Of a stretch of DNA of 64,000 nt, positions 27,891-51,965 are shown one piece after another. The position numbers and the translations under genes are program-made. The DNA lies in contig CBDCXV010000002.1 of the NCBI GenBank assembly GCA_965223905.1, positions 128,001 through 192,000 of the forward strand, in the 5' to 3' direction. Source of the DNA: Candidatus Latescibacterota bacterium. GTDB lineage: Bacteria; Latescibacterota; UBA2968; UBA8231. Each line of letters opens with the position of its first letter. Within the stretch, counting starts at the first letter, position 1. Below the pieces are notes generated by a model, which had not been told where the DNA came from, searched no databases, and saw nothing but the letters and a program-made list of their open reading frames with translations.

Positions 27891-28088
27891 CTAAACGAAA
27901 GCACCCAGAAAACCCTCGAAACTTGCAATATGGCCTGTTTCTTCCAACCTCTTCTTTACCCTCTCGTAGTACCGGTCATGCAAGAGGGGTTTGGAATTAA
28001 CAACCCTGAGCTTCGGATTAACCAGTGGAACCCAATGTTCGTATACTCTTTTCTCTCCATTCCCCTCAACAACCAAATATACATCCAT
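27891..28088 (-). pseudogene. Truncated TOPRIM-like partner of an AAA ATPase
   Basis: MDVYLVVEGNGEKRVY (VEG..E motif), only 65 aa; ATG lies 1 nt after the ATPase stop. Confidence 0.55.
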
Positions 28089-28089
28089 T

Positions 28090-28850: not shown

Positions 28851-29121
28851 GCCAGGGTGGTTCAGCCGGGCAACTTTCCATGAGTCCGGAGTCGACTCCC
28901 GGATTTGTCGGTGTGGATAACGAATCGATTTCACAGCCACGGTGTCGCGAGACGAGATCCGCGATCTGCTGATCGCCCACGGTGCCAGGGCCGAGGAACA
29001 GCTCCCGCACCGCGTAATCGATTGACAAGTGCAGGTGAGGTGAAACTGCCGGCCCGTCAGAAAATCTTCATGGCCATCCCTTCCGGAGCGCCGATCACTC
29101 GTTCAGGAGAAACAGGTTCCC

Positions 29122-34469: not shown

Positions 34470-35282
34470 TTACAAGGCGCGCACCTCGACGACGTAGAGC
34501 ACCGCGAGGGCGGCGACGATCACCAGGGCGAGGTAGTGGAATTTCTCCCGGGTCTGCACGAACTGCTCGATACGCTCGAGATCCCCCTTGAACTTCCCCG
34601 ACATGTTGCGCTGCACGTAGGTCTTGTAGTACTCAACGGAAAAGCGCTCGAGGCCGCCGTTCATGTAGACGAGGAACCCGGCCGAAACCGGGGAGGCAGG
34701 ATCGTTGACGAAATAGAACAGCGGGCTCAAAAGGGCCAGGACCATACCTGAGCGCTGGAATTTCAGCGGCTTGAACCCCTCGAAAGGCGCGTCCTTGTAG
34801 GCGCCCCCGAGGGACACCACCAGCCCGGTGCCGTAGGCAATGAGGACGAACCAGAAGAAGCGCTCGACCGGAACCTCTATCCGGGTAACGGCGAACACGG
34901 CGGCGACGATCACCGCCCCGGCCGCGTACCGGAGGAGATCGCTCTGGACGTGCCGCCCGAAAAAGGTGATGCGGGAGGGGACGAAGTACTTCTCCTGGTC
35001 TTCGGTGCGGGAAAACCCCTTGTAGATCTCGGCCAGGAACCGCTCGATCCCCATGACCAGGAAGAAGAGCTGGAACATCCCGATCCCGGCCAGGCGCTGG
35101 GTGAACGGGGGAAGGGTATACAGCACCAGGAAAATGGCCAGGCTGAACCAGATGCTGCGGGGGAAGGTGCGCGGCTTGAACCCCTCGAAGGGGGAGTCCT
35201 TGAAGGCTCCCCAGAGAGAGGTGTAAAGGCCGGACAGGAGGGTCACGGCCAGGATGGTGGTTAAGGGCAATTGGGGGTACAA
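34470..35282 (-). CDS. Integral membrane protein of unknown function with two internal repeats
   Basis: Multiple TM segments; GAFKDSPFEGFKP and GAYKDAPFEGFKP; GIERFLAEIYK and GLERFSVEYYK. Confidence 0.8.
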   Translation of the reverse strand: MYPQLPLTTILAVTLLSGLYTSLWGAFKDSPFEGFKPRTFPRSIWFSLAIFLVLYTLPPFTQRLAGIGMFQLFFLVMGIERFLAEIYKGFSRTEDQEKYFVPSRITFFGRHVQSDLLRYAAGAVIVAAVFAVTRIEVPVERFFWFVLIAYGTGLVVSLGGAYKDAPFEGFKPLKFQRSGMVLALLSPLFYFVNDPASPVSAGFLVYMNGGLERFSVEYYKTYVQRNMSGKFKGDLERIEQFVQTREKFHYLALVIVAALAVLYVVEVRAL

Positions 35283-35410
35283 GGTTGGAGGGGCAGATGG
35301 CGCTGGAGTCTACCACAGGGCTGCCGAGGAGGCAAGCGCAACACCGGGTTCCCGGGCGCCGGGGAGGCTGCTCGGATGGAGCTTCCACGGGCGCTGTAAG
35401 CCGATGAGGG

Positions 35411-36097
35411 TTATGACGGCAGCACGAAGGTGAAACCGGCCCAGAAGGCGAGTGTTACCAGCCAAAACACGCAAACGATGCCGCCGGTGCGCAGCCAGCT
35501 GAATCGACAGACCCTTTGAATACCGAGAGTCAGAAGAAAGTTATACCACACCTTGAACGGATTGACGTCCGCAAGGATCACATTCAGGACAGGGTGGGTC
35601 GTCTCTTTCCAAAAGAGATCGAGCCCCATTCTCATCTGCAGAATCTCAGGGGCAAGTTCGCCGTTTTGGGTTCGGATGAAAAGGATGATCGATCCCGTTA
35701 CAACGTGGAGCAGGGTAGCGACGCTTGCGTGCGCAACCACCGACAAGATCGATTTGATGCTCGCCAATCCCTCGAAGATCTGAATAATCAACCAGAGTAG
35801 AAACGCGGAAACGGACCAGGAAAGCAAAGTTGCGAAAAAGGAAGCCGCCGTAGATGCATACCTTACTGCCTGTTCGATCGATGATACGCCAGCTGCCTGG
35901 GAATCCGGAAGAGTACCAGGAACAAGGAACAAGGTCTGCTGAAAAACCGTGGTAGTATACCAGGCCGAAATGGCAGTTACAAAAGCGATTGTGAAATATG
36001 CGCATATCCAGGTCGGCCGTTCGGAGATTTCATCGAATGCGAGGAAAGGCGAGAAAATCACCAGGGCCAGGCGTCGCAGGGAAGGAAGAAAAGACAT
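35411..36097 (-). CDS. Yip1-family membrane protein
   Basis: VIFSPFLAFDEISERPTW start, about 5 TM helices, NPFKVW..LLTLGI motif. Confidence 0.78.
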   Translation of the reverse strand: MSFLPSLRRLALVIFSPFLAFDEISERPTWICAYFTIAFVTAISAWYTTTVFQQTLFLVPGTLPDSQAAGVSSIEQAVRYASTAASFFATLLSWSVSAFLLWLIIQIFEGLASIKSILSVVAHASVATLLHVVTGSIILFIRTQNGELAPEILQMRMGLDLFWKETTHPVLNVILADVNPFKVWYNFLLTLGIQRVCRFSWLRTGGIVCVFWLVTLAFWAGFTFVLPS

Positions 36098-36145
36098 GGA
36101 TCCGCAGTTCAGGCAATCGGTTTGCGCAAACCGGAGGGGCGAGTC

Positions 36146-36772
36146 TTACCGGGGAGAACGGGCGACTGAAGGCAACGCCGACAGCCCGGACGGACCGCCG
36201 GTGGAATAGCGAGGGATTGATGAGAGAGGACACCGGGACTTGTGATCCTGAACCATGGAATCAATGATTCCTCGGACTTGCCGAAAGGCCTTATAGCCTA
36301 CGTGCTTATGCAACAGGATGCCTTCTTCGTCGATGAGAAACAGTGCCGGGACAGCTGAGGTTCCGAGTTTTTCTCGTAGTTGAAGCTTGGATTCCATCCA
36401 GAGCGGAAAGGAAAAAGCATCACCGGACTGGAAGTTTCGAGGCACAACGGAGCCGTAGGTAGCAACAGCTACTATGGAGAATTTGCCGTCCTGCCCATGC
36501 TGGTGGTGTATTGCGTCCAGGACTTTGAGCTGTTCTTGGCAATAACCGCAACCCAGATCGAGGAACACGGCGATTATCTTCTTGCCGCGAAAGCTGTCGA
36601 GGTCAACGGTCTCTCCCGCAAGATCCGTGAGCTCAAGGCGCGGAAAGGTGTGCCCTGTGAGGATGATGCTTTCGACGCCGTACCGGTTGTGAAACCACAG
36701 GAGCCCGAAAGCTGCGATTCCCAGGATGCCTGACAAAATTGACGTTGCAATGAGTCTGCGGCGACTTCTCAT
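36146..36772 (-). CDS. Membrane-anchored TlpA/redoxin-type thiol-disulfide oxidoreductase
   Basis: N-terminal TM, LTDLAGETVDLDSFRGK, CGYC, VPALFLIDEEG; start codon uncertain. Confidence 0.85.
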   Translation of the reverse strand: MRSRRRLIATSILSGILGIAAFGLLWFHNRYGVESIILTGHTFPRLELTDLAGETVDLDSFRGKKIIAVFLDLGCGYCQEQLKVLDAIHHQHGQDGKFSIVAVATYGSVVPRNFQSGDAFSFPLWMESKLQLREKLGTSAVPALFLIDEEGILLHKHVGYKAFRQVRGIIDSMVQDHKSRCPLSSIPRYSTGGPSGLSALPSVARSPR

Positions 36773-36925
36773 AAGTCTCAGTCTCAGCTTGAATCCACTA
36801 TTGTGGAAAGCGTAAATCACGAAGTGCCTCCCGTAAGGATTCACGGGGAATGGTGACCCGAAAAACCATGGAAATTCTGCGCCGCGGAAACATGGCCCCG
36901 GCAGCCAAGTTGATAGTGGCAAGCC

Positions 36926-37369
36926 CTAAACTCCGGGGCGATCCAGGATACTGGAGAACAAGGCTCTCAGGATGGACACCCCTTGCTCTTGCACGAGCGT
37001 AGCTTCTACCACCTGAAAGGAGTCCGTCCCGGCTGCATCGCCCCCTGTCCCGTCGATTTCGATCCGCACTGCAACCGAGGGCTCCCCGTCCGCCAGGCAT
37101 CCACTTACCTTTCCGACCTTCAGGTACCTGACCTCATTTCCCCGGCTCCGGATTTTGAGGTGCCTGCACCTGTGCAAAAGAGCGACCCGGTCCCCAGGAA
37201 CCTTGGTGGTCATTACCCAACCCGTCTCTGTGAGCATGATCTTCCCCTCGACTTCCATCCCCACATCCATGCGCGTCACCGTAAGGGCAATCAGCAGAAG
37301 GAGGAAAACCGCGGCCGCCCCGAGGAGCATGGCACCCGCGCGCCATTCGATTGTTGCCGGGATTCTCAT
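36926..37369 (-). CDS. Small membrane-anchored protein resembling a reduced HlyD/membrane-fusion accessory protein
   Basis: Single TM followed by 'V.MEVEGKI', C-terminal 'ATLV...SILRALF'; ATGA-coupled to the ABC exporter; no coiled coil. Confidence 0.55.
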   Translation of the reverse strand: MRIPATIEWRAGAMLLGAAAVFLLLLIALTVTRMDVGMEVEGKIMLTETGWVMTTKVPGDRVALLHRCRHLKIRSRGNEVRYLKVGKVSGCLADGEPSVAVRIEIDGTGGDAAGTDSFQVVEATLVQEQGVSILRALFSSILDRPGV

Positions 37370-39180
37370 CCTGCCTTCTTCAAGTCCTGCTCGTATATGG
37401 TGGTGAAATGCCCCCCCATTCGAAGAAGCTCCTGTAACGTACCCTCCTCAACGATCCGGCCCCCCACCAGCACGAGAATTCGATCTGCGAACAACACGGT
37501 GGAAAGACGGTGGGCGACCAGTAGCGTCGTACGGTCCTGCGCGGCGCGGCGCAACGAGTCCCCAACGAGATTTTCCGCCCGTGGATCAAGTGAGGCGGTG
37601 CCCTCGTCCAGCACGAGAAGCCTGGGATCCCGGATCACGGCGCGGGCTAACGCAACCCGCTGCTTCTGCCCGGCGGAAAGTTGAACGCCGTCGCCACCAA
37701 GCCGGGTCTCCAAGCGGGCTGGAAACCCGTTGATGAACTCCATGCAATTGGTGGATTCCGCCGCAGCCAGAACCTCCTCCTTGGTAGCCCCCGGCTTGCC
37801 GTAGGCGATATTCTCCCAAATGGTCCCGGGAAACAACCGGAGGTTCTGTTCGACAAGCGCGACGTTCTTGCGAAGCGCGCGTACGTCATATGATAGAAAA
37901 TCGTTCCCATCAAGCAGCATTCGACCCGAAATCGGCTCGTACAGCCGTAACAGGAGGTGAACCAAGGTGGTTTTCCCGGACCCGCTGGGCCCCACTACGA
38001 CAGATATTTTCCCAGGTTCAAGGACGAGGTTTACTCCCTTCAATACCGGAAGCTGGGGAATGTACCCAAAATGCAAATCCTCAATGACAACTTTCCCAAT
38101 CTTTGCTGGGCTCCGAAAGGTTCCGCCTCGTCCTTTTTCTTCCGGAACATCCAGAACCCCAAAAACCCGTTTCAAGACTCCTACTCCTCGCTTGAAGTTC
38201 AGGTAAATTCCAGTGAGCTGCCCGATCGGTCCGTATATATAGGAAACCAGCATATTGAAGGCCATGAATTCACCGAGGGTCAGCTCGTCGCGCATGATTG
38301 CGTAGGTCCCGTACCACAGCAGGAGAATTCCGCCGAGAGCATAGAGAAAAACCTGCACCAGATGGCCGCAGGTCATGGTGACATTTCTGGATAGATCGGC
38401 GTCGAATTCGGAGTGCAAGGCGGACACCAGCCGACGTGCTTCCAATTTTTCCCGGTCGAACGCCCTGACTACGTGCGCCGATTCCAGGGACTCCAACCGG
38501 ACAGCATTCGTGACGCCCTTTCGCTCCTGCACCTGTTCACTCAGCACCTGGACCTTGCGCCCAAACAAAAAATTGACGGCAACAATCCCCGGTAAAACAA
38601 CAAGGACGGCCAAGCCCAATTCCGGGTTAATGGTGAACATGATGCAGGTCGCGGCGACTAAAACGGTGATGCTGCTGAGTCCTTCGATATAGGCTCCGGC
38701 CATCATGGACCCAAGCTGCCTGACATCGTCGCTGATTCTTGTGGCAATGTACCCGCTGGCGTGGGATTTCAGATAGGAGAGTGGTACCGAATGAATCTTT
38801 TGAAACAATTTCAGTTCTATATCGAAAAACACCCGTCTGGTAAATATCAGCAGCAAATAGTGCTGTAAAAAACTCAAAACAATTCCCAGAAGGATAATGG
38901 ACGCTAGCACAGCGCAGACCAAATGGAGAATATCCTCCTGATGGTTCACGATAATATGGTCGATTATGTAAATGGAGAACAAGGGCATGGGAAGGGCCAA
39001 TACAGTGGAGAAGACCATGCATGCGGCGGCTTCGATTACCCGAATCCAATAGGGCTGAAAAAAGAAAAGCAGCCGCAAAAAAAGGAATCGTCCCACACCC
39101 GGTGACGGGTTGGAGGTAAAAACCTGGCGGAGGGTAAAGCCCCTTTGTCGCGCTAGCTCAAGTTGTCGAAAGAAGCCCAT
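37366..39180 (-). CDS. ABC exporter (TMD+NBD), peptide/bacteriocin-type, without C39 peptidase domain
   Basis: 6-TM domain (SGYIATRI.DD, LTLGEFMAF), GPSGSGKTT, LSAGQKQR, VLDEGT, VAHRL. Confidence 0.92.
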   Translation of the reverse strand: MGFFRQLELARQRGFTLRQVFTSNPSPGVGRFLFLRLLFFFQPYWIRVIEAAACMVFSTVLALPMPLFSIYIIDHIIVNHQEDILHLVCAVLASIILLGIVLSFLQHYLLLIFTRRVFFDIELKLFQKIHSVPLSYLKSHASGYIATRISDDVRQLGSMMAGAYIEGLSSITVLVAATCIMFTINPELGLAVLVVLPGIVAVNFLFGRKVQVLSEQVQERKGVTNAVRLESLESAHVVRAFDREKLEARRLVSALHSEFDADLSRNVTMTCGHLVQVFLYALGGILLLWYGTYAIMRDELTLGEFMAFNMLVSYIYGPIGQLTGIYLNFKRGVGVLKRVFGVLDVPEEKGRGGTFRSPAKIGKVVIEDLHFGYIPQLPVLKGVNLVLEPGKISVVVGPSGSGKTTLVHLLLRLYEPISGRMLLDGNDFLSYDVRALRKNVALVEQNLRLFPGTIWENIAYGKPGATKEEVLAAAESTNCMEFINGFPARLETRLGGDGVQLSAGQKQRVALARAVIRDPRLLVLDEGTASLDPRAENLVGDSLRRAAQDRTTLLVAHRLSTVLFADRILVLVGGRIVEEGTLQELLRMGGHFTTIYEQDLKKAG

Positions 39181-39288
39181 CTTGCATCAGCTGCATCCAT
39201 CAGGTGGGGGAAAGCCGCGAAAGCGTGAAGACAGGACGGATTGGCGGAGGAAGCGGAAGCGACGGTTTGGGTATTTGTGGACAGGACA

Positions 39289-40068
39289 CTATACCGGAGA
39301 CGGCCCGGCATTCAGCCAGGAGAGGTTCCCGCCTTGAGCGGGGTGACGCACGAGCTCCAGGAAAACTTTCTCAAGGCCGGAAACTCTCCCTCCGGCGGTA
39401 GGATAACGGTCCCGTTTGGCCGTGTGAATGATCTCTCCCTCATGCATTATGGCAACCTCCGAACAAAGCTTTTCAACCAGTTCCAGATTATGAGAGGTGA
39501 GAAAAATGGTGATTCCCCGATCCTGCATGGAGAGTAGGACCTCCTGTATGACTATTGCGGAGGCCGGATCAATTCCCTCGAAAGGTTCGTCCATAATCAA
39601 AACGCGGGGAGACCGGATGAATAAGGAGGCCAGGTAAAGCTTTTTCTTCATCCCGGCGGAATATCTATAAATGAACCCGTGGCGCGCTTCTGCCAAACAC
39701 ATCAATTCCAATAATTCTTCACACCTGGCGAAGATCACCCGGTCAGGGATGGAGAAAACTTTGCCGATAAATACGAGGTACTCCTCTCCAGTCAATTGTT
39801 CGTAGAGGCCAAGGGTGTCTGTCATCACACCGAGTTGGCGTTTAATTTCGACCCCATGGAGGTGAAAGTTCTTACCAAGGATCTTGACAATACCTGACGT
39901 GGGTTGCAGCAACCCGGAAAGCATCCCAACGGCTGTTGTCTTTCCCGCCCCGTTGGTTCCAAGGAGACCGAAAAAGGCTCCTTCGTTTATGGAAAGGGAA
40001 AGATTCTTCACAGCAGTGACAGGCCCGAATTCCTTGATCAGGTTTTGTGCGGATATGGCTATGTTCAT
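39289..40068 (-). CDS. ABC-2-type ATP-binding protein
   Basis: GTNGAGKTT, YSAGMKKK, IMDEPF, LTSH. Confidence 0.93.
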   Translation of the reverse strand: MNIAISAQNLIKEFGPVTAVKNLSLSINEGAFFGLLGTNGAGKTTAVGMLSGLLQPTSGIVKILGKNFHLHGVEIKRQLGVMTDTLGLYEQLTGEEYLVFIGKVFSIPDRVIFARCEELLELMCLAEARHGFIYRYSAGMKKKLYLASLFIRSPRVLIMDEPFEGIDPASAIVIQEVLLSMQDRGITIFLTSHNLELVEKLCSEVAIMHEGEIIHTAKRDRYPTAGGRVSGLEKVFLELVRHPAQGGNLSWLNAGPSPV

Positions 40069-40081
40069 TTGTGGGCCTTCC

Positions 40082-41707
40082 CTATTTGAAAAGCACGCCC
40101 AGCAGTTTTTCTTGTCTGGATTTCATAAGAGCTGATGATTTTCTGATGGCAGGAAAGTAGGTACCCAGACTCACTAGAAAAACTAGGAAAAAGCTGATAA
40201 TCGTCAATTGTGGGGAACGTAAGACAATATGGAAAACATAAACGTTGATCCCAATAAAAATTACCGCGGGCAACCAGGCAATTAAAATCAAACAAACACT
40301 TTGGGTCGACCAGGTTCTCTGACTCATCGAACCAAAGGATTTGAGTTTCTTTGGAAAAAGAACGGATGAAAAATTTCCAGTCGCGGCAACGTAAATGGGA
40401 ACGCAAACGGTCAATGGAATCAATGCAAAGGCCAGTGTCAGGTCTGTTTCCTTCCCTTGCCAGGTCCAGAAAAGGATTCCTGGAAGATACATCCAGTTAT
40501 TGAAAATCTGAAGACATACCAGCGCCAAATTTTTACTGATAAGCACATCTCGTAAATGAATCGGTAAAAGAAAGTGGTGAACAACACCTTTAGACTCTTT
40601 ATTGAACAGAGAGTGCATGAAACCACTCATTCCCCCGAAATAGAAGACCAGGAACGCCCAATAGTACTCAAACCGTGCCGAAAGGATTACTACTGACATG
40701 CACCAGGCAATAACTACTTGAAAAACGGCCATTACCCGGAACTGATTCCATCTACACAGATATAATAGCTCGTGGGTGAAAAAAGGGATATACTTCCTGG
40801 GAAGAAAGCGGTCCGCAATGCCGCAAATTTTAAAATAAATATTGCCTGGTAGCCCCTGACTTTCTCTACTAACCGAGGGTTCGTGGAACATCAGACTCAT
40901 GGTGCTTCTGCGTGACACGAGATACCCCAATGAGAGGTATCCCATAAGGCCAAGGAAACAGACTATCGAATCAAAAATTCTTCCCCGACTCAAAAAATAG
41001 AAAATATCAGCGAGCATGCCCGGTGGTGTAAATTTGAGGTAGGAAGATAAACGAAGTTTTCCTAATTGAGTTATCATTTCTTGCATGTACTCATCCTTCA
41101 AAAGAAGCAAAGCCAACATCAGATTAACCATGAGGAAAGCTAAGCTTGTAAGTATGACCAAACCGTATTTGGATATCCACCAACTAAGGGAAATATCTAT
41201 CCACGAACGCAACGCCTGAATCCAGCTTACCATCAGCACAGCAAACGCAATCATCGAAAGACCGCAGATAATTCCGGTTGTGATTGATTTCAACAATCCA
41301 CATGCCATCGCCGAAGAGACCAAAACAGGTGCAAATATAATCAGCCATCGGTCAGAAAGGGTTCTAACCACTCCGGCAGCGTAAACCTGTTTGTAGGTCC
41401 ATGGATACTTGACGGTTTCGCGAAGATCCTTACAAACAGAAGTACTTATGATACTCTTGAGCCCTAGAACCACCCATACCATCGACAAACCGGCAAACAA
41501 TGCGTGAAGCAATTCCCGAACCATCAAGCCCCCGTCACCCATAGCATGAAGCAACGCGTGGTGTATGCCTGCGGAGGCCCAGAGCGAGAGGACCAGGATC
41601 GCTATCTCCCCCGATATTTTAACGGCATAACTTCCAGGGCCCGATTTTGATTCAGTTCGCTCGCCCTTTAAATGGAGCCATGTCATGTACCACCAAACTT
41701 TTAGCAT
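40082..41707 (-). CDS. Multi-pass membrane protein, probable ABC-2-type permease
   Basis: About 12 TM segments, 'FLLPIHLRDVLISKN' motif, immediately upstream of the ABC ATPase; AT-rich. Confidence 0.8.
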   Translation of the reverse strand: MLKVWWYMTWLHLKGERTESKSGPGSYAVKISGEIAILVLSLWASAGIHHALLHAMGDGGLMVRELLHALFAGLSMVWVVLGLKSIISTSVCKDLRETVKYPWTYKQVYAAGVVRTLSDRWLIIFAPVLVSSAMACGLLKSITTGIICGLSMIAFAVLMVSWIQALRSWIDISLSWWISKYGLVILTSLAFLMVNLMLALLLLKDEYMQEMITQLGKLRLSSYLKFTPPGMLADIFYFLSRGRIFDSIVCFLGLMGYLSLGYLVSRRSTMSLMFHEPSVSRESQGLPGNIYFKICGIADRFLPRKYIPFFTHELLYLCRWNQFRVMAVFQVVIAWCMSVVILSARFEYYWAFLVFYFGGMSGFMHSLFNKESKGVVHHFLLPIHLRDVLISKNLALVCLQIFNNWMYLPGILFWTWQGKETDLTLAFALIPLTVCVPIYVAATGNFSSVLFPKKLKSFGSMSQRTWSTQSVCLILIAWLPAVIFIGINVYVFHIVLRSPQLTIISFFLVFLVSLGTYFPAIRKSSALMKSRQEKLLGVLFK

Positions 41708-41884
41708 TTTTATCTGAATTTCCGATGCGAGGGGGTACGGACCAAACTCAGACTCTTTTTCTCATTTTTGAGTTACACCCCATGCTTACCCTGGACTCTC
41801 TTCCATTCTCCCAGACAGTTACATGTTTCCTTCATATTCGCTACTAATAAAAGTGAGGGAGGCCATCTCCTTCAGATTAAATCT

Positions 41885-41906
41885 CGAGGCTGAAATTCAA
41901 GCCTCG
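41885..41906 (-). terminator. Stem-loop downstream of the peptide gene (terminator or mRNA-stabilising hairpin)
   Basis: CGAGGCT...AGCCTCG inverted repeat about 10 nt after the peptide stop; weak U tract. Confidence 0.5.
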
Positions 41907-41916
41907 TTCGTTTTCA

Positions 41917-42141
41917 TCAACCAAACCAGCCGTAGCTGACAGCGGTGATAAAGCCACAGTGCAATGCTGCCGAAATCGCCAGTGCCCCGCCGAGCGGCCC
42001 AGTAAACAGGGAAGAAGCTAATGCGGCAGCGGTTGCTAAACCGCAAACAAAGAACTTCAAACCTGTCAACTCATCGTGATAGGCATCGACTTTGCCCGAT
42101 GCATCGTAGTCCCTATATGAAGGTTTCTTCAAAGGTTTCAT
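41917..42141 (-). CDS. Candidate bacteriocin/RiPP-like precursor (74 aa)
   Basis: Charged 24-aa leader, then a Gly/Ala-rich hydrophobic core with Cys33 and Cys62 around a central GP; in an operon with exporters and a thioredoxin. Confidence 0.68.
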   Translation of the reverse strand: MKPLKKPSYRDYDASGKVDAYHDELTGLKFFVCGLATAAALASSLFTGPLGGALAISAALHCGFITAVSYGWFG

Positions 42142-42287
42142 AGGTCTAGCCCTTTCAAGGTTATGAATTTGGTAAAGGAGTGGCCTCCCTCAACAAGGGC
42201 CTGAAATTCGGGTTCGTTCCGCGAATTTTCATCTTGTCCTCGATCACCCTGCGCCCCCAATCTGACGCCCCTCTCAACTAGTTTCAT
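42138..42287 (-). CDS. Possible 49-aa peptide ORF (MKLVERGVRLGAQGDRGQDENSRNEPEFQALVEGGHSFTKFITLKGLDL)
   Basis: Starts 10 nt after the TPR stop; its TGA overlaps the precursor ATG (ATGA); no clear RBS. Confidence 0.35.
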   Translation of the reverse strand: MKLVERGVRLGAQGDRGQDENSRNEPEFQALVEGGHSFTKFITLKGLDL

Positions 42288-42297
42288 CTTAATTCAT

Positions 42298-43755
42298 TCA
42301 GCTCATCAGGACCACCCTTCGTGCTTTAAATTTATCAGCCAACTCAACCAAGCCTTTTTGTTCAAAAATCATTCCTATTCTCGTCGACATTTCACTTTCC
42401 AGCACGTGGCAACCGACATTGTTTGCCATTTCCACGGCCCTTTCAAAATAGGACAATCCCTGGAACACCTCGTTTTGCCCGACCAGGATGATACCAATCC
42501 TCTCGTACGCCCTTATCTCCTCGAAAATATTCCGGGTTTTTCGAGCCGCTTCAACGATATTTTTCGTGATATCCATGGCGCGCTCCCCATCCCCTTCCAT
42601 CGAATAAACTTCGGCCAGGGAATTTCCACTCCGAAATTTACCATTGGCATACCCGATCGCAGTCGCCACCGCACGGGCCTTCTCCAACGAAATTTTCCCT
42701 GCCTGGTAATCCCCCATGGCAACTTGTTGCATGCTTAAACGGACGAGAATATCCACTTCTCCTTTCTTGTATCCCAGTTCCCTAATTAAGGCCAATCCCT
42801 TTTCAATCCACAACAGGCCAGATGTTGGATCGTCTGCACCTGATATCTCACCTGATAAAACTAAAATTTTCGCCTTGTGATGGTCATCCCCCAACTTGGT
42901 ATCCGTTTCCAAAACCTTGGCCAACAGCTCCGCTGTCTCGTTCAACCGATTATTCATTAAATGTAATGTTGCATAATTCGTCAGAATGCGGACATGATCC
43001 TGGGACATCTGCCGATTTGCGACCAATCCCATGTTTTCACGGAATATCTTTTCCGCCTCCTGAATTTGTCCCCGGGACAGATAAACTATACCCATGGTAC
43101 AACGCACGCCTACGAGCCCCCTTCCTGCCTGGATCGTATCGAACACCGTAAGGGCCTTCTCGCAGCAGGACATCGCCTTTTCGTATTCTCCGATCCTGAG
43201 TTGGAGAAGTCCTTTTTGATGGATGGCCATTGCAAGCAAAGACCCAACACCATTTTCTTTCGCCGTTTTGATAGCCCGGTCAAATACCTCTTCCGAGTTG
43301 TCTGTCTCGCCCAGATCTGAGTAAACCTGGCCCAGGTTGATCCCAGACGCAATTTCGAACGGAATCTCCTTTTGCTTTTCCGACAGGGCCCTGGCTGTTT
43401 CGAATCCATTGGCGGCTTCTCTCAGATCCGAAACCATCATTAACGCCGCTGCATGCGCTGAAACGGCGCACATACTCTCCATGCTTTTTTGAGAAGCAAT
43501 ATAGTGCCCGGCCGCATCGAGAAATTTCCGTTCCTTGAACGCCTTTTCCCCTTGGTTATAATGATGAATTGCCCGACTCCCTCCCAGCCCGGCCTGGTCT
43601 CCCATTTCCCCTACCAGGATACTTGCTGACGGCTTGAGTAGCCTCTGTCCATCATCAGGCAGATATACCAAATCGAAACCGGCAAATGATCCCGACCAAA
43701 TAGGCCCGGGTTTTTTACCGGTTAGTCTTCTCCTTTCAGACCTGTGATTTTTCAT
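42298..43755 (-). CDS. Tetratricopeptide-repeat protein
   Basis: Serial repeats such as INLGQVYSDLGE..., HQKGLLQLRIGEYEKA, TMGIVYLSRG; start codon uncertain. Confidence 0.82.
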   Translation of the reverse strand: MKNHRSERRRLTGKKPGPIWSGSFAGFDLVYLPDDGQRLLKPSASILVGEMGDQAGLGGSRAIHHYNQGEKAFKERKFLDAAGHYIASQKSMESMCAVSAHAAALMMVSDLREAANGFETARALSEKQKEIPFEIASGINLGQVYSDLGETDNSEEVFDRAIKTAKENGVGSLLAMAIHQKGLLQLRIGEYEKAMSCCEKALTVFDTIQAGRGLVGVRCTMGIVYLSRGQIQEAEKIFRENMGLVANRQMSQDHVRILTNYATLHLMNNRLNETAELLAKVLETDTKLGDDHHKAKILVLSGEISGADDPTSGLLWIEKGLALIRELGYKKGEVDILVRLSMQQVAMGDYQAGKISLEKARAVATAIGYANGKFRSGNSLAEVYSMEGDGERAMDITKNIVEAARKTRNIFEEIRAYERIGIILVGQNEVFQGLSYFERAVEMANNVGCHVLESEMSTRIGMIFEQKGLVELADKFKARRVVLMS

Positions 43756-44250
43756 TTCTGTCAAGTCAGGGTACCAACCAACCGATCCGTATTTTGACCA
43801 CCCCATCCACTCCGGCCCCACTCCTGTAGTGTGACTCCGCACTCCCCGGGGTTTCTTCCCATTGGGTGTACGCTGGATTTATTCTTGATCAGACGCAAAA
43901 TCTGGGCCAGCAACCTCGATGGCCCAACGGACGCCTCTAGCCAGGGTGACGCTGTGCCCCTTCTCACACAAATCCCTGTAACGACCCTCGGTCCACTCCC
44001 TCTGGCAAAATGGTCCGCATTCGCTTCGCCACTGGCCCGACGCGTTACTATTCCTACGGCCGTGCCTGATCCATACCAAGTTTGCAGGAAAAAAATTACC
44101 GCCTTGGTGCATGGGCCTGCCCCCCGGGGATGCTCCCTGGGTGGTCCAGCACACGGTTCTGTGTCCTGGAGCACACACTCCGGTGCCATCGGCGGCAAGG
44201 GGAGCCTACGGATCCCATTCCACTCCCTCTCGAACTGCGGCGGGGCCGCG

Positions 44251-44740: not shown

Positions 44741-45118
44741 GTCAGACTGTCCCGCGCACTCTGTGCGGCAACGGTGTCCAGGCCCGGCCTTCCCGGCTTC
44801 CGGGAAGCCGAAGCAAGTCCCTCCCCAGGGACCTAAAGGACACCACAATTTTTGAAAAACATCCTCGGGACCGACCGATCCCATGGACGGGCGCACCCCG
44901 GCTTGGCGGGCAGCGCATCCCGAAGGCCAGGGCTATGTACTGACTGTTCCGATCGGTGTTGTGAATGGGTATGGACGGAGCCTTTCCGCCCCGAACCGGC
45001 TCTGCCCAACACGTAGAACCAAAATGGCCGGGTTAGACAGCAGTCTGGCTGTGAAAGTCTTCGGTTTTGTTGTAAGTTGAACACGTTTCCATCAGGGCCA
45101 ACTCACGAGGGAATCACC

Positions 45119-48100
45119 ATGGATAAACATCGAAGGATCATTTCTCAGCTTGGGCAGCTTACGCAAAAAATCGCCCATCCTACGCGGCTGGTGATCGGCG
45201 GTCTCGTGGCACTGGTATCCGGCGCCGGTGCGGAACCGCTGCTCGAAGGGCGGGTGCGGCTGTTCGCCGACCTGGGCAGCTCGCTGGGCGCCGCCACCGA
45301 TGAGAGCGGCTATTTCGCGCTGCCCCTGAACGCGCTGCGCCAGGCCGCCCCCCGGCCGGCGCACATGCAGCTGGGGCAGAACTACCCCAACCCGTTCAAT
45401 CCCTCGACGATCATCCCGTATCAGCTGCCCGCCCCGACTCGGGTGCGGCTGGAGGTGTTCAACATTCTGGGGCAGCGGGTTGCCACCCTGGTCGACGGGA
45501 AACAGGCGGCCGGTTTTCACACCGCGACATGGAACGCCACAGATGCTTCAGGGCGGGGTGTGGCAACGGGGGTGTACCTGTACCGGCTGCTGGCCGACAG
45601 GGAGCGCTTGACGCGGTCGATGGTTCTGCTGGACGGACCGGTGAGCCCGGCGGGAATAGCTCCCTCCGGTGGCGGGATCTCAGCCGGTCCGCAGGGCACC
45701 GACGGTGCAGCGGATCCATCAGGTAGGACTGCGGGAGCGATAGCATCAGGGTCGTGGGTCCCCCCCGGCGGCCAAGGGCAGGTCTACGGGTTGACGGTCA
45801 CTGGCCCGGGACTCATCCCCTATGTCGACCCGGCCTTCCGGGTGGGGGACGGTCCGGTCGAAATCCGGGTGGAAACGCTGGCCAGCTTGCCTCGCGGAAA
45901 GATGGCCGCAGACGGCCTGCTGGGAGACGTCGACGGCAACGGCCAAGTCGACCTCTCCGACGCCCTGCTGGTCGCCTCGTACAGCGAGGACCCCTCCCTT
46001 TCCATTCCCAACGGGGATATCACCCTGGGGGACGTCAACCGGGACGGTCAGGTCGATCTGGCCGACGCCCGCCTCATCGTGGCGTACCATGCGGACCCGT
46101 CCGACCTGTCGCTACCGGAAGGGATCGGCGCCCCGGTGGGGGCAGATGACGAAGGACCGCGGCTCTACTGGACGGACGCGGGCAGCGACAAGATCCAGCG
46201 GTCCCGCCTCGATGGCTCCGGGGTCGAGGACGTCGTCGACAGCGGCCTGGTCTATCCGCGCGGCCTGGCGGTGGACCTGGCGGCCTCCAAGCTGTACTGG
46301 ACCGACTACGGCACCGACAAGATCCAGCGCTCCAACCTCGACGGAACCGAGGTGGAAGACCTGGTGACCGAGGGCCTGAAGGAGCCGTTCGGTATCGCCC
46401 TCGATCTGGGCGGCGGCAAGATCTACTGGAGCGACTGGGGCACCGACAAGATCCAGCGATCCAACCTCGACGGCTCCGAAATCGAAGACCTCGTCGCCAC
46501 CGGTCTGAACGAGCCCTACGGCCTCGCCCTCGACCTGGGGGAGGGCAAGATCTACTGGACCGACTGGGGCAGCGACCGGATTCAGCGCGCCAATCTCGAC
46601 GGCTCACAAGTCGAGGACCTGGTCACCGGGCTCAACCAGCCCCGGGGGATCGCCCTCGATCTGGAAGACGGCCGCATGTACTGGCCCGACTGGGGCACGG
46701 ACAAGATCCAGCGCGCGAATCTCGACGGCTCCGAGGTGGAAGACTTGGTTACCGAGGGCCTGCGGACCTCCCAGGCGATCGCCCTCGATCTGGGCAGCGG
46801 CAAGATGTACTGGACCGACTACGGCACCGACAAGATCCAGCGGGCCAACCTCGACGGCAGCCAGGTCGAGGATCTGATCACCTCCGGTCTGAAGGAGCCG
46901 TACGGCTTGACCCTGGGCGCCGGCCTGCCGGCGCAGATCCTGAAAGTAAAGGGCGCCTCGGCGACCCTGAACCTGGCCGGCCGCTTCCGCGACCCGGAGG
47001 GGGGCGCCCTGACCCTCGCCGCCGCCTCCAGCGACGAGGCGGTCGCCGCCGCGAGTCTGGCCGACTCGGTGCTGACCATCGCGCCGGTGACCCCCGGCCG
47101 GGTGACGGTCGCGGTGACCGCCCGCGACGAGGGGGGCCGGGCTGCCACCCTGCCGGTGGCCGTGACCGTGTACCCGGCCAACCGCCCCCCGGTGGCCAAA
47201 GCCCTGGCCGACCGCAAGATCCGCATCGGCAGCCCGGACCGGGTCGAGCTGACCAGCGCCTTCACCGACCCGGACGAAACAGACGTGCTGACCTACACGG
47301 CCGCGTCGAGCAACGAGGCGGTGGCCACCGCAGCCATCGAGGGGACCGGCCTGCGCATCACCCCCAAGAGCATCGGGCAGACCGGGATCTCAGTGACCGC
47401 CCGCGACCCGAAGGAACTGGAGGCGTCACTGAGCTTCAGGGTCACCGTCGAGCCCAAGCCGCCCCCCAGGCCGCCCCGGACCCCGCCCGGCTCGGGCAGT
47501 GACGATGGTGATGGTAATGGTGATGACGGTGGTGGTCCGGTAACCCCCCCGCCCCCGACGCCTCCACCTCCACCGCCGACGCCTCCGCCTACCCCACCTC
47601 CGCCGGGTCAGAACAACGCCCCCACCTTCGACGAGAGGCCGAGCGCCACCCGCAGCGTCGCCGAAAACACCGAGGCGGGTGAAGACATCGGCAACCCGGT
47701 GACCGCGACGGATAGCGATGACGACAGGCTGACCTACAGCCTGGAGGGGACGGATGCGGGGAGTTTCACCCTCGCCTCCACCAGCGGCCAGTTGCGCACC
47801 CGCTCGGGCGCCACCTACGACTACGAGACAAAGCCCCGCTATTCTGTGTCGGTGAAAGCCGAGGACGGACATGGCGGCATTGCCGCCATTGACGTGACCA
47901 TCCACGTGGCCGACGTGAACGAACCGCCCGGGAGGCCGTCTGCCCCGTGGGTTGAGCCGGCCTCCTCCACCAGCCTGACCGTGAGCTGGACCGAGCCGGC
48001 CAACACCGGCCCCGATGTCCACGACTACGACGTGCAGTACCGCAAGAGCGGCAGCTTCCTCCCCTGGCCGCACGACGGCCCCGGTACCACTACCACGATC

Positions 48101-50344
48101 CCGGACCTGGAGGTCAACACCCGTTACGAGGTGCAGGTGCGGGCGCACAACGACGAAGGGGAGAGCGAATGGTCCGCCTCGGGCTTCGGGGGGAGCTGTT
48201 CAGAAGGCGGCGATGCCCCGACGCCGGTGGAAGTGGAAGTGACGGCGGTGCCCATCGTGGTCGAGTCCAAGACCGACAAGTACTTCGTGCTCTACGTGCG
48301 GCACGACGTGGATGGCGCGACGGTAGAGGTGCCGGTTCTGGTCAAGCGCGGCGAAGCCGGCACGACCACGCTGGCCGAGAACGTGGTGGCCCTGCCCGCA
48401 GAGCGCTACCGGGTAGAGGAGTACCTCATCGCCGACCCGGCCGACGTCGACGGCGACTGCACCGACGACCTCACCGAACTGGCAGACCCGGTGGGCATGA
48501 ACCCGGTGAACCCCGCCGCGGCCATCGAATTCAGTGACGGGGCCGTGACCGTTCCCGATCGGGAAACATTCGAGACGCTCTCCTTTAACGATTTCTTCCT
48601 CAAGTTCGTTCTGCTCGGCATGCACACCGACAGCCCGCGTCTCTACTTCATGAACACCAAAACCACTTTGAATCATAAAGAGTTCCTGGAGGTCATCGGC
48701 ATCGAGCTGGGACAGGAGGGGATGATCGAAGGCAGTCTCATGCGTCGCTGGGATCTCGTTGCCCCCGATGGCAGTCCGGGAGTCTACTGCTATTGGTGGC
48801 GACATCGCCAGCATCCGTACTCCTTCAGCGTCGTGGCGCGCGCCCATACGCTGCTTGCCGCCAGCATGCCGCTGCTCGAAGACGACCTGGCGTTCTACAT
48901 ATCGAACGACGCTCTTCTGCATTCTCAACCCGACTTGCCGTTGTACAGGGAGTCCCGAATCCCACTCGTGTTCGCCGAGGAGTTCTTCGGCGAAACCAAT
49001 TTTCTGGCGTTGAACCCGGGGGAGGGGTACGGCCTGCTGCGGGTCATGGACCCGGACGAACGTCCCCACCCGCGCGACATCGTGATCTACGAGGCGCTGC
49101 CCAACGAGCTGCCCCGCGTGGCCGGCATCATCTCCACCGTGCCCCAGACGGCGCTCTCGCATGTCAACCTGCGCGCCGTGCAGGATGGCATTCCCAACGC
49201 CTTCATCCGCAACGCCCTCGACAAGCCCTACATCGACGATCTCCTCGGCAGCTACGTCCGTTACAGAGTGACCGAGGACGGCTGGGACCTGCGCGCCGCC
49301 ACCCGCGCGGAGGTCGATGCCCACTACGAGTCTTCGCGGCCCGCCCATGACCAGGTCCCGCAACGCGACCTCGGCGTCACGACGATCGCCGCCCTCGGTG
49401 ACATCGGCTTCGATGACTGGGACGCGTTCGGCGTCAAGGCGGCCAACGTGGCGGTGCTGGGGACGCTGGGGTTTCCGGAGGGGACGGTGCCCGACGGCTT
49501 CGCGATCCCGTTCTACTTCTACGACGAGTTCATGAAGCACAACGGGTTCTACACCCGCATTGAAACCATGCTGGCCGACGAAGCTTTCCAGACGGACTTC
49601 GAAGCCCAGGCGGACTCACTCAAGAAGCCGCGCAAGGACATCGAAGACGCGGAGACGCCGGATTGGATCGTCTCGGCAATCGAGGCAATGAATGAGTCTT
49701 TCTCCGAGGGGATCAACCGCCGCTACCGGTCCAGCACCAACAACGAGGACCTGCCCGGGTTCAACGGCGCGGGGCTGTACGACTCCAAGAGCCAGAAGCC
49801 GAGCGAGGACGAGAAGGATCTCGCCAAGTCCCTCAAGGAGGTGTACGCCGGTCTGTGGAACTTCCGCGCCTTCGTCGAACGCGACTTCCATCGCATCGAT
49901 CACCTGGCGGCGGCGATGGGCATCCTGGTGCATCCCAGCTACAGGGACGAGCTGGCCAACGGCGTGGCCGTCAGCTTCGACCCCATCTACGGCAGAGCCC
50001 GACGCTACTACGTCAACACGCAGGTCGGCGAGGATCTGGTCACCAATCCCGAGGCGCACTCGGTGCCGGAGGAAGTCCTGTTGAACCCGCCTTCTGTTTC
50101 TCTCCCTTACACCGTCCTTGGGACCTCCAACCAGGTGCCGCCGGGGCAACTCCTCATGAGCCGTGACCAAATGCGCCAGTTGAGAGAACATCTCGAGGTG
50201 ATCCATAAGGAGTTCGCCGATCTGTACGACCCCGCAGACGATGAACCGTTCGCCATGGAGATCGAGTTCAAGATCACCAGCGACAACATCCTGGCGATCA
50301 AGCAGGCCCGCCCCTGGGTCTTCGGCGCCCAGGTCGATGAGTGA
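45119..50344 (+). CDS. Giant modular secreted protein (FlgD-Ig/PNPFN, dockerin-like, one YWTD propeller, Ig/cadherin, FN3) ending in a phosphohistidine + ATP-grasp dikinase module; paralog B
   Basis: Signal-like VIGGLVALVSGAGA, NYPNPFNP, GDV[DN].DG.VD x2, 6 YWTD repeats, then LSHVNLRA, FGVKAAN, YRSSTNNEDL, GAGLYDS, EIEFK, IKQARP. Confidence 0.92.
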   Translation: MDKHRRIISQLGQLTQKIAHPTRLVIGGLVALVSGAGAEPLLEGRVRLFADLGSSLGAATDESGYFALPLNALRQAAPRPAHMQLGQNYPNPFNPSTIIPYQLPAPTRVRLEVFNILGQRVATLVDGKQAAGFHTATWNATDASGRGVATGVYLYRLLADRERLTRSMVLLDGPVSPAGIAPSGGGISAGPQGTDGAADPSGRTAGAIASGSWVPPGGQGQVYGLTVTGPGLIPYVDPAFRVGDGPVEIRVETLASLPRGKMAADGLLGDVDGNGQVDLSDALLVASYSEDPSLSIPNGDITLGDVNRDGQVDLADARLIVAYHADPSDLSLPEGIGAPVGADDEGPRLYWTDAGSDKIQRSRLDGSGVEDVVDSGLVYPRGLAVDLAASKLYWTDYGTDKIQRSNLDGTEVEDLVTEGLKEPFGIALDLGGGKIYWSDWGTDKIQRSNLDGSEIEDLVATGLNEPYGLALDLGEGKIYWTDWGSDRIQRANLDGSQVEDLVTGLNQPRGIALDLEDGRMYWPDWGTDKIQRANLDGSEVEDLVTEGLRTSQAIALDLGSGKMYWTDYGTDKIQRANLDGSQVEDLITSGLKEPYGLTLGAGLPAQILKVKGASATLNLAGRFRDPEGGALTLAAASSDEAVAAASLADSVLTIAPVTPGRVTVAVTARDEGGRAATLPVAVTVYPANRPPVAKALADRKIRIGSPDRVELTSAFTDPDETDVLTYTAASSNEAVATAAIEGTGLRITPKSIGQTGISVTARDPKELEASLSFRVTVEPKPPPRPPRTPPGSGSDDGDGNGDDGGGPVTPPPPTPPPPPPTPPPTPPPPGQNNAPTFDERPSATRSVAENTEAGEDIGNPVTATDSDDDRLTYSLEGTDAGSFTLASTSGQLRTRSGATYDYETKPRYSVSVKAEDGHGGIAAIDVTIHVADVNEPPGRPSAPWVEPASSTSLTVSWTEPANTGPDVHDYDVQYRKSGSFLPWPHDGPGTTTTIPDLEVNTRYEVQVRAHNDEGESEWSASGFGGSCSEGGDAPTPVEVEVTAVPIVVESKTDKYFVLYVRHDVDGATVEVPVLVKRGEAGTTTLAENVVALPAERYRVEEYLIADPADVDGDCTDDLTELADPVGMNPVNPAAAIEFSDGAVTVPDRETFETLSFNDFFLKFVLLGMHTDSPRLYFMNTKTTLNHKEFLEVIGIELGQEGMIEGSLMRRWDLVAPDGSPGVYCYWWRHRQHPYSFSVVARAHTLLAASMPLLEDDLAFYISNDALLHSQPDLPLYRESRIPLVFAEEFFGETNFLALNPGEGYGLLRVMDPDERPHPRDIVIYEALPNELPRVAGIISTVPQTALSHVNLRAVQDGIPNAFIRNALDKPYIDDLLGSYVRYRVTEDGWDLRAATRAEVDAHYESSRPAHDQVPQRDLGVTTIAALGDIGFDDWDAFGVKAANVAVLGTLGFPEGTVPDGFAIPFYFYDEFMKHNGFYTRIETMLADEAFQTDFEAQADSLKKPRKDIEDAETPDWIVSAIEAMNESFSEGINRRYRSSTNNEDLPGFNGAGLYDSKSQKPSEDEKDLAKSLKEVYAGLWNFRAFVERDFHRIDHLAAAMGILVHPSYRDELANGVAVSFDPIYGRARRYYVNTQVGEDLVTNPEAHSVPEEVLLNPPSVSLPYTVLGTSNQVPPGQLLMSRDQMRQLREHLEVIHKEFADLYDPADDEPFAMEIEFKITSDNILAIKQARPWVFGAQVDE

Positions 50345-51688: not shown

Positions 51689-51960
51689 CAGTGTCCCGGT
51701 CCATGATATGGAAGGCGTCCGGTTCCGACACCAAATGGTCGAGGAGAATGACATCGTGCGGTTTTCCCCCTGTGATGCGGATACAGCGGGGAATCGCGGT
51801 TTTGCGCTGACGAAAGCGGGCGAATGCCGACACGGTACAGTTTGGGGTGTAGCGCTCGCAGGCCGGTTTCGATGTCTCGCAGGCTCTCGCGGCCGGTCAG
51901 TTGAGAAAAGACCATGCAAAGAAACTGATCCGGACAGAAACCCAGCGGAAAACGGAACCT
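51689..51960 (-). mobile_element. IS4-family transposase remnant (DUF4372 + DDE fragments)
   Basis: DQFLCMVFSQLTGRESLRDIE and IRITGGKPHDVILLD...FHIMDR; ends in ACCGGGACACTG, resembling an IS4 terminus. Confidence 0.72.
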
Positions 51961-51965
51961 GCCGC

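Follow-up and report, generated by a model that had tools for sequence, protein, structure and literature searches.

A candidate cassette for a leader-dependent, bacteriocin-like peptide in Candidatus Latescibacterota, linked in its relatives to an S8::DUF1611 fusion protein

Description

A low-GC island in the genome of a Candidatus Latescibacterota bacterium (NCBI GenBank assembly GCA_965223905.1; 7.9 Mb, 11 contigs) carries eight genes that we read, with modest confidence, as a production, export and self-protection cassette for a ribosomally made, leader-dependent, membrane-active bacteriocin-like peptide, predicted to be a helical hairpin stapled by a disulfide. The stretch analysed, here called the window, comprises 64,000 nucleotides (contig CBDCXV010000002.1, positions 128,001 to 192,000 of the forward strand), and all positions without a prefix refer to it. 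The eight genes lie at 35411-43755 and, as checked in the open reading frames (ORFs) and their translations, all have one orientation, on the minus strand. An earlier note, made from the sequence alone, had described this region as an undescribed peptide cluster of eight or nine co-oriented genes; the eight are all present, and the ninth, an ORF of 49 amino acids (aa), was not retained (see below). The window's genome is referred to as G000 (the window being its contig C2, 128001-192000), a sister genome of the same genus that has the cassette as G002, and a congener that lacks it as G001. Pfam scans covered 10 ORFs of the window, 12 of G035 and 9 of G019, the latter two being genomes with related cassettes; the NCBIfam scan of ORF sets covered the window.

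Peptide gene

The gene at 41917-42141 (minus strand) encodes a 74-aa precursor peptide, characterised here by an alignment of 12 peptides, natural variants, the ratio of non-synonymous to synonymous differences per site (pN/pS), AlphaFold2 and a hidden Markov model (HMM) of the leader. Its leader, approximately residues 1-25, follows the pattern L-x-K-P-x4-Y ... A-Y-H-D-E, and the core that follows (about 50 aa) is hydrophobic, has many Gly and Ala residues and contains Cys33 and Cys62. The peptide has no match in Pfam or NCBIfam. Across the 12 aligned peptides, which come from seven loci, M1, K6, P7, Y12 and Y21 never vary and L4 hardly does, giving a family leader of about 21-25 residues (L-x-K-P-x4-Y ... 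Y) with no conserved double-glycine (GG) site, while the cores are divergent, hydrophobic and Gly/Ala-rich, with one to five Cys. Overall peptide identity is 20-38% outside the window's genus. The peptides of the window, G002, G035, G033 and G012 have two Cys each, in all five cases one early in the core and one at the C-terminus or close to it; those of G019 and of locus L019 mostly have three or four. A shared leader followed by divergent cores is, in its sequence features, the signature of ribosomal peptide precursors, and it agrees with the leader/core make-up that the earlier note had given for the 74-aa product.

Two comparisons speak for a coding gene. Natural variants in public assemblies (n=8, 91-100% identical) show conservative changes only and a fully conserved leader, and the gene differs from its G002 counterpart at 7 synonymous and 6 non-synonymous positions (pN/pS 0.27, compared with 0.34-0.69 for the other cassette genes). 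In contrast, the 49-aa ORF at 42138-42287, considered as a second peptide gene, was rejected, as a 1-nucleotide (nt) indel breaks its frame in G002, while the DNA of this region is about 96% identical to G002 despite the indel. With this frame not conserved, the cassette is taken to have one peptide gene and not several, and 42142-42297 (minus strand) is listed as a conserved non-coding leader region upstream of the peptide gene (about 96% identity to G002; no family match).

In the 7.9-Mb genome, the window peptide is the sole match to the leader HMM (E 2.1e-11; next E 7.2), a word-indexed protein search found near-identical relatives only (1 cluster), and a metagenome scan with a 7-sequence peptide alignment matched 47 stretches, none of which was confirmed. 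The AlphaFold2 model based on the 12-sequence alignment has a helix at residues 17-47, a turn at G48-P49 and a second helix at 49-70, with a mean predicted local distance difference test score (pLDDT) of 75. Cys33 lies 15 residues before the predicted turn and Cys62 14 residues after it, and at such near-equal distances from the Gly-Pro turn the two would face each other in a two-helix hairpin, so that a Cys33-Cys62 disulfide would staple the model.

Related loci

The 541-aa membrane protein of the cassette, being its most specific marker, was used as the query for relatives; it located cassettes in G035, G019 and four further records, and those of G033 and G012 were found around S8::DUF1611 genes, described below. 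Maps made with tblastn show the same gene order in eight related loci (L016, L017, L018, L019, L020, L021, L024 and L028): a TPR protein gene, small ORF(s), membrane protein gene(s), a DrrA-like ATPase gene, an exporter gene, a gene for a 147-aa protein, in some loci a thioredoxin gene, and a Yip1 gene. Protein identity to the window goes down to 24-56%; the TPR and membrane proteins share 24-29% and the exporter 42-63%. The earlier note had staked its proposal on homologous cassettes having a comparable small ORF, and one to four such ORFs do occupy the expected position in six of the eight related loci. L016, L017, L024 and L028 have a single one, whereas L018 and L019 have tandem paralogues, three and four in number; with the window's own, these make up the 12 peptides. 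L020 ends at a contig end that cuts off its upstream part. At the level of sequence, this supports the cassette as a conserved unit with variable small ORFs at its centre.

Of 168 genomes surveyed in the phylum, 14 have the 541-aa protein, and they belong to 6 of 49 genera; these counts are a lower bound, since the G033 and G012 cassettes escape this query. Two further loci come from metagenome-assembled genomes (MAGs) labelled Gemmatimonadaceae. The cassette family is patchily distributed in Candidatus Latescibacterota and these two MAGs.

Some loci differ at their upstream ends. Response-regulator/AraC genes lie upstream in G035 and G033. Two large ORFs (1052 aa and 511 aa, stop to stop) at 2523-7206 of L021 replace the TPR and peptide part, the 511-aa ORF having a P-loop-like G-K-S motif. 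Directly upstream of the TPR gene in G019 (L009, 4193-7112) are genes for a BtrH_N/DUF4872 protein and a family 4 glycosyltransferase (GT4) that are absent from the other cassettes.

S8::DUF1611 fusion protein

In all seven cassettes outside the window's genus, the Yip1 gene is directly followed by a gene for a protein of about 650 aa in which an S8 protease is fused to a DUF1611 domain. The S8 half has QhpE as its best NCBIfam match (3.5e-46; 157.3 and 147.6 bits against a cut-off of 165), and its D-S-G, H-G-T and G-T-S catalytic motifs are intact. The C-terminal half matches TIGR04066, a family named 'peptide maturation system protein', below the cut-off of 200 bits, at 2.3e-40 (138.7 bits) in G035 and at 2e-28 (99.4 bits) in the copy of the window's genome, and this DUF1611 half also has a weak DgcN match, likewise below cut-off; its closest solved structure is 2g0t, an uncharacterised protein. 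No signal peptide was found in the fusion protein. The earlier statement that the cluster has no recognisable modifying enzyme or peptidase therefore describes the window's island correctly but does not extend to the family.

The window's genome has exactly one S8::DUF1611 gene, encoded in trans (G000:C10:911290-913269, minus strand; L015 10288-12270) in native high-GC DNA, and exactly one leader-bearing ORF. After its G001 orthologue, the C10 gene is closest to the G012 copy that lies at a cassette, with 65% identity. Two MacB/FtsX permease genes and an ABC (ATP-binding cassette) ATPase gene lie on one side of the C10 gene and an extracytoplasmic function (ECF) sigma-factor gene on the other; the cassette-linked copy of G019 is likewise followed by HlyD and MacB/FtsX genes.

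S8::DUF1611 proteins are much more widespread than the 541-aa protein. Of 41 related genomes 30 have them, often in several copies and with as many as 5 matches in one genome, and of 8000 candidate protein clusters that were scored, 748 match at E<=1e-20; the source labels of these clusters read only 'S8 family serine peptidase' or, for entries from the Joint Genome Institute (JGI), epimerase-family. In 14 further loci with S8::DUF1611 genes, an MsbA-like exporter is nearby in most and an AraC-type response regulator in six. At four of them (L022, L025, L031 and L033), ORFs of 120-160 aa that share their strand with the exporter and S8::DUF1611 genes have leader-like N-termini (K-L-x-K ... V-x-A-Y-G/S-E) and hydrophilic, Cys-free cores. 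An HMM built from the 12 cassette leaders gave no significant match to those N-termini (best E 7.7 at genome-scale Z), and the extension of the leader family to other S8::DUF1611 loci is therefore hypothetical, being visual only.

Other cassette genes

The domain assignments of Pfam and NCBIfam agree with the TPR protein, the two ABC systems, the CxxC oxidoreductase and the Yip1 protein that the earlier note had named. The exporter gene (37366-39180, minus strand) encodes a half-transporter of MsbA/HlyB type with a membrane domain and a nucleotide-binding domain (ABC_membrane 3.7e-42, ABC_tran 4.3e-31), for which NCBIfam gives MsbA_rel (9.5e-117) and HlyB (3e-104), both below cut-off. It has no C39 match in Pfam or NCBIfam, as had been noted, and since the ABC_membrane match begins at residue 50 (50-318) there is no room for a C39 domain. 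It would serve as a dedicated peptide exporter.

The ATG of the next gene (36926-37369, minus strand) overlaps the exporter stop codon. Its 147-aa product, present in eight of eight related loci, has no Pfam or NCBIfam match and is modelled by AlphaFold2 (pLDDT 72) as a transmembrane (TM) helix at residues 5-31 followed by an extracytoplasmic beta-barrel, with no lipoyl or hairpin domain. No Foldseek match to the model was found at E<=1e-3. VIA-align places BesA (Z 8.3), MacA (7.7) and AcrA (7.2) high, with about 11 membrane-fusion proteins in the top 23; the BesA and MacA alignments cover 90-92 residues, the beta-barrel only, and such Z values are common, with unrelated flavin adenine dinucleotide (FAD)-binding barrels reaching similar ones. 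The nearest named Atlas clusters are short 'putative HlyD family' proteins, LcnD_C and Beta-barrel_AprE (0.91-0.92). The label 'mini-HlyD' used in the earlier note accordingly has moderate structural backing from VIA-align and Atlas and none from Pfam, NCBIfam or Foldseek; it is a fair, if not established, working name for a protein that, on its model, is a candidate truncated exporter accessory of LcnD/HlyD type.

The 541-aa polytopic membrane protein (40082-41707, minus strand) has no Pfam or NCBIfam match of its own. A profile of four homologues searched against 1.84 billion proteins gave 461 representatives at E<=1e-3, of which 98 reach E<=1e-10 and 15 reach E<=1e-30, and a word-indexed search with the protein found near-identical relatives only (1 cluster). 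Four of 38 relatives have sub-threshold Pfam matches of the ABC-2 clan (ABC2_membrane_2, ABC2_membrane_4 or 12TM_1), and the nearest Atlas clusters are annotated with 12TM_1, ABC_tran_2 and ABC_export (scores 0.96-0.98). Its gene adjoins that of the DrrA-like ABC ATPase (39289-40068, minus strand; ABC_tran 6.3e-24), whose start it overlaps in G035; NCBIfam matches this ATPase to the DrrA subfamily (1.2e-58) and to a lantibiotic-protection ATPase (6.3e-42), both below cut-offs. Judging from these matches and the neighbouring ATPase gene, the 541-aa protein is most plausibly a 12-TM ABC-2-type permease that would partner the adjacent ATPase in self-protection efflux. A split permease in L024 and L028, where two smaller membrane genes stand in its position, was considered, and homology was not supported (hhalign E 0.81 and 0.012; no Pfam match).

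The Yip1-domain protein (35411-36097, minus strand; in eight of eight related loci) has a Pfam Yip1 match above cut-off (2.4e-11; 44.3 bits, cut-off 28.6) and an NCBIfam match to NF052650, YknW_fam, below it (1.8e-16; 60.3 bits, cut-off 110), and is a YknW-like candidate for an immunity or transport accessory protein. The TPR gene (42298-43755, minus strand; about 485 aa from the ATG at 43755, in a frame open up to a GTG at 43842) matches TPR_12 (9.6e-23) and TPR_MalT (5.2e-13) and, weakly and below cut-off, RNPP_C (1.5e-05); Pfam finds no DNA-binding domain in it. Its homologues precede the peptide genes in six related loci, and their alignment has a conserved L-P-D-D-G motif. It is a candidate leader-binding chaperone or regulator.

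A thioredoxin-fold oxidoreductase similar to ResA/TlpA is encoded at 36146-36772 (minus strand; AhpC-TSA 2e-12, Redoxin 3.3e-11). The frame spans 36146-36922 with M51, at 36772, as the likely start; the NCBIfam ResA match (7.7e-15, below cut-off) covers residues 51-223, and the translation has a C-G-Y-C motif and a hydrophobic N-terminal segment that may serve as a membrane anchor. The gene is present in L016, L017, L024 and L028 and was not detected in L018-L021, so that a redoxin is found in five loci with two-Cys peptides and undetected in four G019-type loci; as the loci form two clades, this co-occurrence does not count as independent support. The oxidoreductase seen in the window by the earlier note is real, yet its absence from the four G019-type cassettes means that it is not a universal part of the system.

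A GC-rich hairpin with a 7-bp stem lies at 41885-41906, 11 nt past the peptide stop codon (fold energy -20.4 kcal/mol). The element had been pointed out before and exists, but it folds only modestly better than shuffled sequences (z -1.8; 8 of 200 shuffles fold equally well), and the coding strand has no U-tract there; attenuation or mRNA stabilisation are possible roles.

Position and borders of the island

The island that the earlier note had called AT-richer is well marked, with a G+C fraction of 0.43-0.60 over 35.5-43.5 kb against 0.65-0.72 in the flanks. From G+C content and the comparison with G001, it spans approximately 35238-44244 (about 9 kb), which comprises the cassette and about 0.5 kb upstream of the TPR gene: G001 is homologous to the left flank as far as 35237 and to the right flank again from about 44245. 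In G002 the cassette occupies the equivalent site, and its proteins are 92-98% identical to those of the window. The island borders show no tRNA gene, no integrase and no flanking direct repeats.

At the syntenic site, G001 has a different low-GC island (G+C 0.37-0.49; L036, G001:C3:3830500-3838500, approximately 1950-6350) with genes for an HlyD protein (401 aa), an MsbA-like ABC exporter (579 aa), a 125-aa protein and a CAAX/Rce1-like protease (288 aa), which looks like another bacteriocin-type export and immunity set. Low G+C content, patchy presence and this different island at the same site are signs of an accessory or mobile character, and horizontal acquisition of the window's island forms part of the explanation that we favour. 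As congeners carry different bacteriocin-type islands at the same chromosomal position, the site suggests a possible hotspot for swapping such export and immunity islands.

Elsewhere in the window, a second low-GC patch (27900-29000; G+C 0.44) holds several short, seemingly broken minus-strand ORFs, one with a D-E-Y-E-N-S-L motif reminiscent of AAA_21/ABC-type ATPases, and may be a decayed foreign gene. Very large plus-strand ORFs lie around the region, at 3-9602 (3199 aa), 45077-50344 (1755 aa) and 51708-63929 (4073 aa); in the 1755-aa ORF, 'Y-W-T-D ... D-K-I-Q-R' units recur and there are Pro-rich linkers.

Proposed explanation and alternatives

Under the favoured explanation, the 74-aa precursor would be made with its conserved N-terminal leader of about 21-25 residues, and the leader would be cut off in the cytoplasm by the QhpE-like S8::DUF1611 protein, which closes the cassette in all distant relatives and is encoded in trans on C10 here; a further modification may come from the DUF1611 domain. 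The core, about 50 aa long, would then leave the cytoplasm through the C39-less MsbA/HlyB-type exporter and its single-TM beta-barrel accessory, by analogy with QhpE/QhpF and LcnC/LcnD. Outside the cytoplasm, the membrane-anchored CxxC thioredoxin could join Cys33 to Cys62 and staple the predicted hairpin. The 12-TM permease, the DrrA-like ATPase and the YknW-like Yip1 protein may clear the peptide from the producer's own membrane, as LanFEG, SkfEF and YknWXYZ would suggest, and the TPR protein may bind the leader or regulate the operon.

Several observations weigh against this explanation. The window's island itself lacks an S8::DUF1611 gene, and the C10 gene is kept in G001 (87% identity), where the membrane-protein query finds no cassette; S8::DUF1611 may therefore have other substrates. 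In G002, the trans copy (L037, G002:C1:587900-590400) has a 1-bp deletion in a C-homopolymer run that falls between the S8 and DUF1611 halves and splits the reading frame, either as a real frameshift or as an assembly error. Upstream of its transport, Yip1 and S8 genes, L021 has neither a TPR gene nor a leader ORF, and the four G019-type cassettes without thioredoxin include peptides with three and four Cys (four in three of their seven peptides). The permease assignment is based on sub-threshold and language-model matches, and L024 and L028 have two smaller membrane genes in that position; the NCBIfam matches used for naming (QhpE, TIGR04066, YknW, ResA and DrrA) are all below curated cut-offs. 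The core is hydrophobic enough for a plain resident membrane protein with two TM helices, and the AlphaFold2 model fits such a protein and a secreted hairpin alike. None of the 22 runs listed is an RNA run holding the window stretch.

The small ORFs might accordingly encode resident two-TM membrane proteins, as subunits, regulators or substrates of the transport complex, with the N-terminus as a cytoplasmic interaction tail, for example for the TPR protein, whose gene always adjoins the peptide genes. Two hydrophobic helices of about 20-30 residues each, the lack of a cleavage-site motif such as GG and an island without its own peptidase all fit this reading. A conserved N-terminus combined with hypervariable cores and arrays of three and four copies is, however, unusual for structural subunits and typical of toxin or bacteriocin precursors, and the linkage of an S8 protease and a peptide-type exporter in seven of seven distant loci would go unexplained, so that we regard this reading as unlikely. 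It is improbable, too, that the island now serves mainly as a resistance or immunity cassette against the peptides of relatives, with the peptide gene a remnant that cannot be matured for want of an S8::DUF1611 gene in the island. That the island ends at Yip1, without the gene closing all seven distant cassettes, that the transport part of L021 persists without peptide genes, and that the G002 trans copy is possibly frameshifted all speak for it; against it, the peptide gene is intact in the window, in G002 and in the eight variants, under the low pN/pS and with the fully conserved leader given above, and the genome has, in trans, an intact S8::DUF1611 gene whose catalytic motifs are complete, the sole copy just as there is a sole leader-bearing ORF.

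The weak RNPP_C match of the TPR protein, its MalT-like TPR match and the response-regulator/AraC genes upstream in G035 and G033 would also suit a secreted quorum-sensing or pheromone signal, with the TPR protein as an RNPP-like receptor and the transporters exporting and recycling the signal. Known RNPP signals are short, unlike a strongly hydrophobic core of about 50 aa that is predicted to be stapled by Cys; the TPR protein has no DNA-binding domain, the ABC-2 transporter and Yip1 look like immunity functions, and hypervariable tandem paralogues would need co-varying receptors, whereas each locus has one TPR gene. A signalling role is thus quite improbable.

The production and self-protection cassette set out above might itself be one cargo-specific version of a more general pathway, made up of S8::DUF1611 (DgcN-like, P-loop/Rossmann), a C39-less exporter and K-P...Y...A-Y leaders, in which DUF1611 would modify the peptide during or after leader removal, for example by N-terminal acylation, and which would handle cargo as different as disulfide-stapled membrane-active hairpins and hydrophilic domains about 100 aa long. 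This wider proposal, cargo range included, is tentative and rather doubtful.

Significance

To our knowledge, Latescibacterota have no cultured representative, and little is therefore known experimentally of how they compete. The cassette offers a concrete candidate antimicrobial peptide system from this phylum, and its new elements are the leader family, the hypervariable cores with a predicted disulfide hairpin and the fused S8::DUF1611 protein that is abundant in metagenomes. If the role of S8::DUF1611 were worked out, it would give a function to DUF1611/TIGR04066, which is also found in sactipeptide-like clusters of gut Clostridia and Paenibacillus, and the proposed scheme, if true, would be a third route coupling leader removal to ABC export, beside C39-ABC transporters and QhpE/QhpF. 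The different bacteriocin-type islands of two congeneric genomes at one site suggest a hotspot for swapped competition cassettes.

Comparison with known systems

The closest parallel to the proposed maturation is the qhp system, in which the cytoplasmic subtilisin-like protease QhpE cuts a leader of 28 residues off the small Cys-rich QhpC, and the ABC transporter QhpF then exports it (PMC7876137). The likeness would lie in a cytoplasmic S8 protease and N-terminal leader removal ahead of export by a C39-less ABC transporter; the S8 half of the fusion encoded at the cassettes has its best score, below cut-off, against QhpE. The cassette differs in having no radical S-adenosylmethionine (SAM) protein QhpD, no QhpG and no dehydrogenase subunits (window and G035 ORF scans), in a cargo predicted to be a hydrophobic hairpin instead of an enzyme subunit, and in the fusion of the protease to DUF1611.

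In sactipeptide-like clusters, TIGR04066 proteins are accompanied by a subtilase, an ABC transporter, a radical-SAM maturase and an acyl carrier protein (ACP)-like protein (PMC10731318, PMC4573289). These 'Cys-rich peptide' clusters of Clostridia and Paenibacillus (radical-SAM TIGR04068, TIGR04066, ACP-like TIGR04069, subtilase and ABC transporter; e.g. SacP23) resemble the cassettes in their DUF1611-type protein, subtilase, ABC exporter and small Cys-containing precursors. In the cassettes, by contrast, subtilase and DUF1611 are one protein and the leader and core families are others; Pfam finds no radical-SAM domain and no ACP-like family in the window, G035 and G019 ORFs. The literature found for DUF1611 concerns Dickeya only.

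Yip1 proteins have been noted in circular and leaderless bacteriocin clusters (PMC8659200, PMC11580447), and DUF95 is described as the class-defining protein of circular bacteriocins (PMC11580447). The cassette shares with such clusters a hydrophobic helical peptide of about 50-70 aa, Yip1, an ABC ATPase with permease and a large membrane protein (PMC8659200, PMC11580447). It differs from circular bacteriocins in its long and conserved leader, in the S8::DUF1611 protein of the family and in termini that would be joined, if at all, by a disulfide instead of a peptide bond. The earlier analogy to this class thus holds for the Yip1 association and breaks down at DUF95, since the window, G035 and G019 cassette ORFs have no DUF95/SpoIIM match in Pfam, and a circular-bacteriocin reading was rejected for that reason.

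Class II bacteriocins exported by peptidase-containing ABC transporters (PCATs) are defined by a C39 exporter domain and a double-glycine leader, neither of which the cassette has. Bacteriocins of the sublancin/glycocin type are two-helix hairpins held by disulfides, whose clusters encode a thiol-disulfide oxidoreductase, a SunS glycosyltransferase and a C39-ABC exporter and whose precursors have a GG leader. The cassette resembles them in its predicted two-helix hairpin and thioredoxin-fold oxidoreductase and differs in lacking a SunS-type glycosyltransferase, a C39-ABC exporter and a GG leader, and in a far more hydrophobic core; Pfam finds no glycosyltransferase in the window cassette, and the GT4 gene upstream in G019 is not conserved in the other loci.

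For self-protection, the nearest comparison is YknWXYZ, which protects Bacillus from its own SDP toxin (PMC4887032). That system likewise combines a Yip1/YknW protein, a membrane-fusion-like accessory and an ABC transporter to guard against an endogenous peptide toxin (PMC4887032), whereas the transporter of the cassette is not of MacB/FtsX type (no FtsX or MacB_PCD match in the window ORFs by Pfam) and its accessory protein is a beta-barrel only.

Neither Pfam nor NCBIfam has a family for the leader, for the core type or for the S8::DUF1611 fusion, and literature searches, which covered papers on Latescibacter bacteriocins in part and by title, found no published description. The cassette fails the defining features of the circular, PCAT class II, TIGR04066, qhp and glycocin classes. 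By analogy, its logic is nonetheless that of a bacteriocin cluster or a cluster for a ribosomally synthesised and post-translationally modified peptide (RiPP), with a leader peptide, a dedicated exporter, an immunity transporter and an oxidoreductase.

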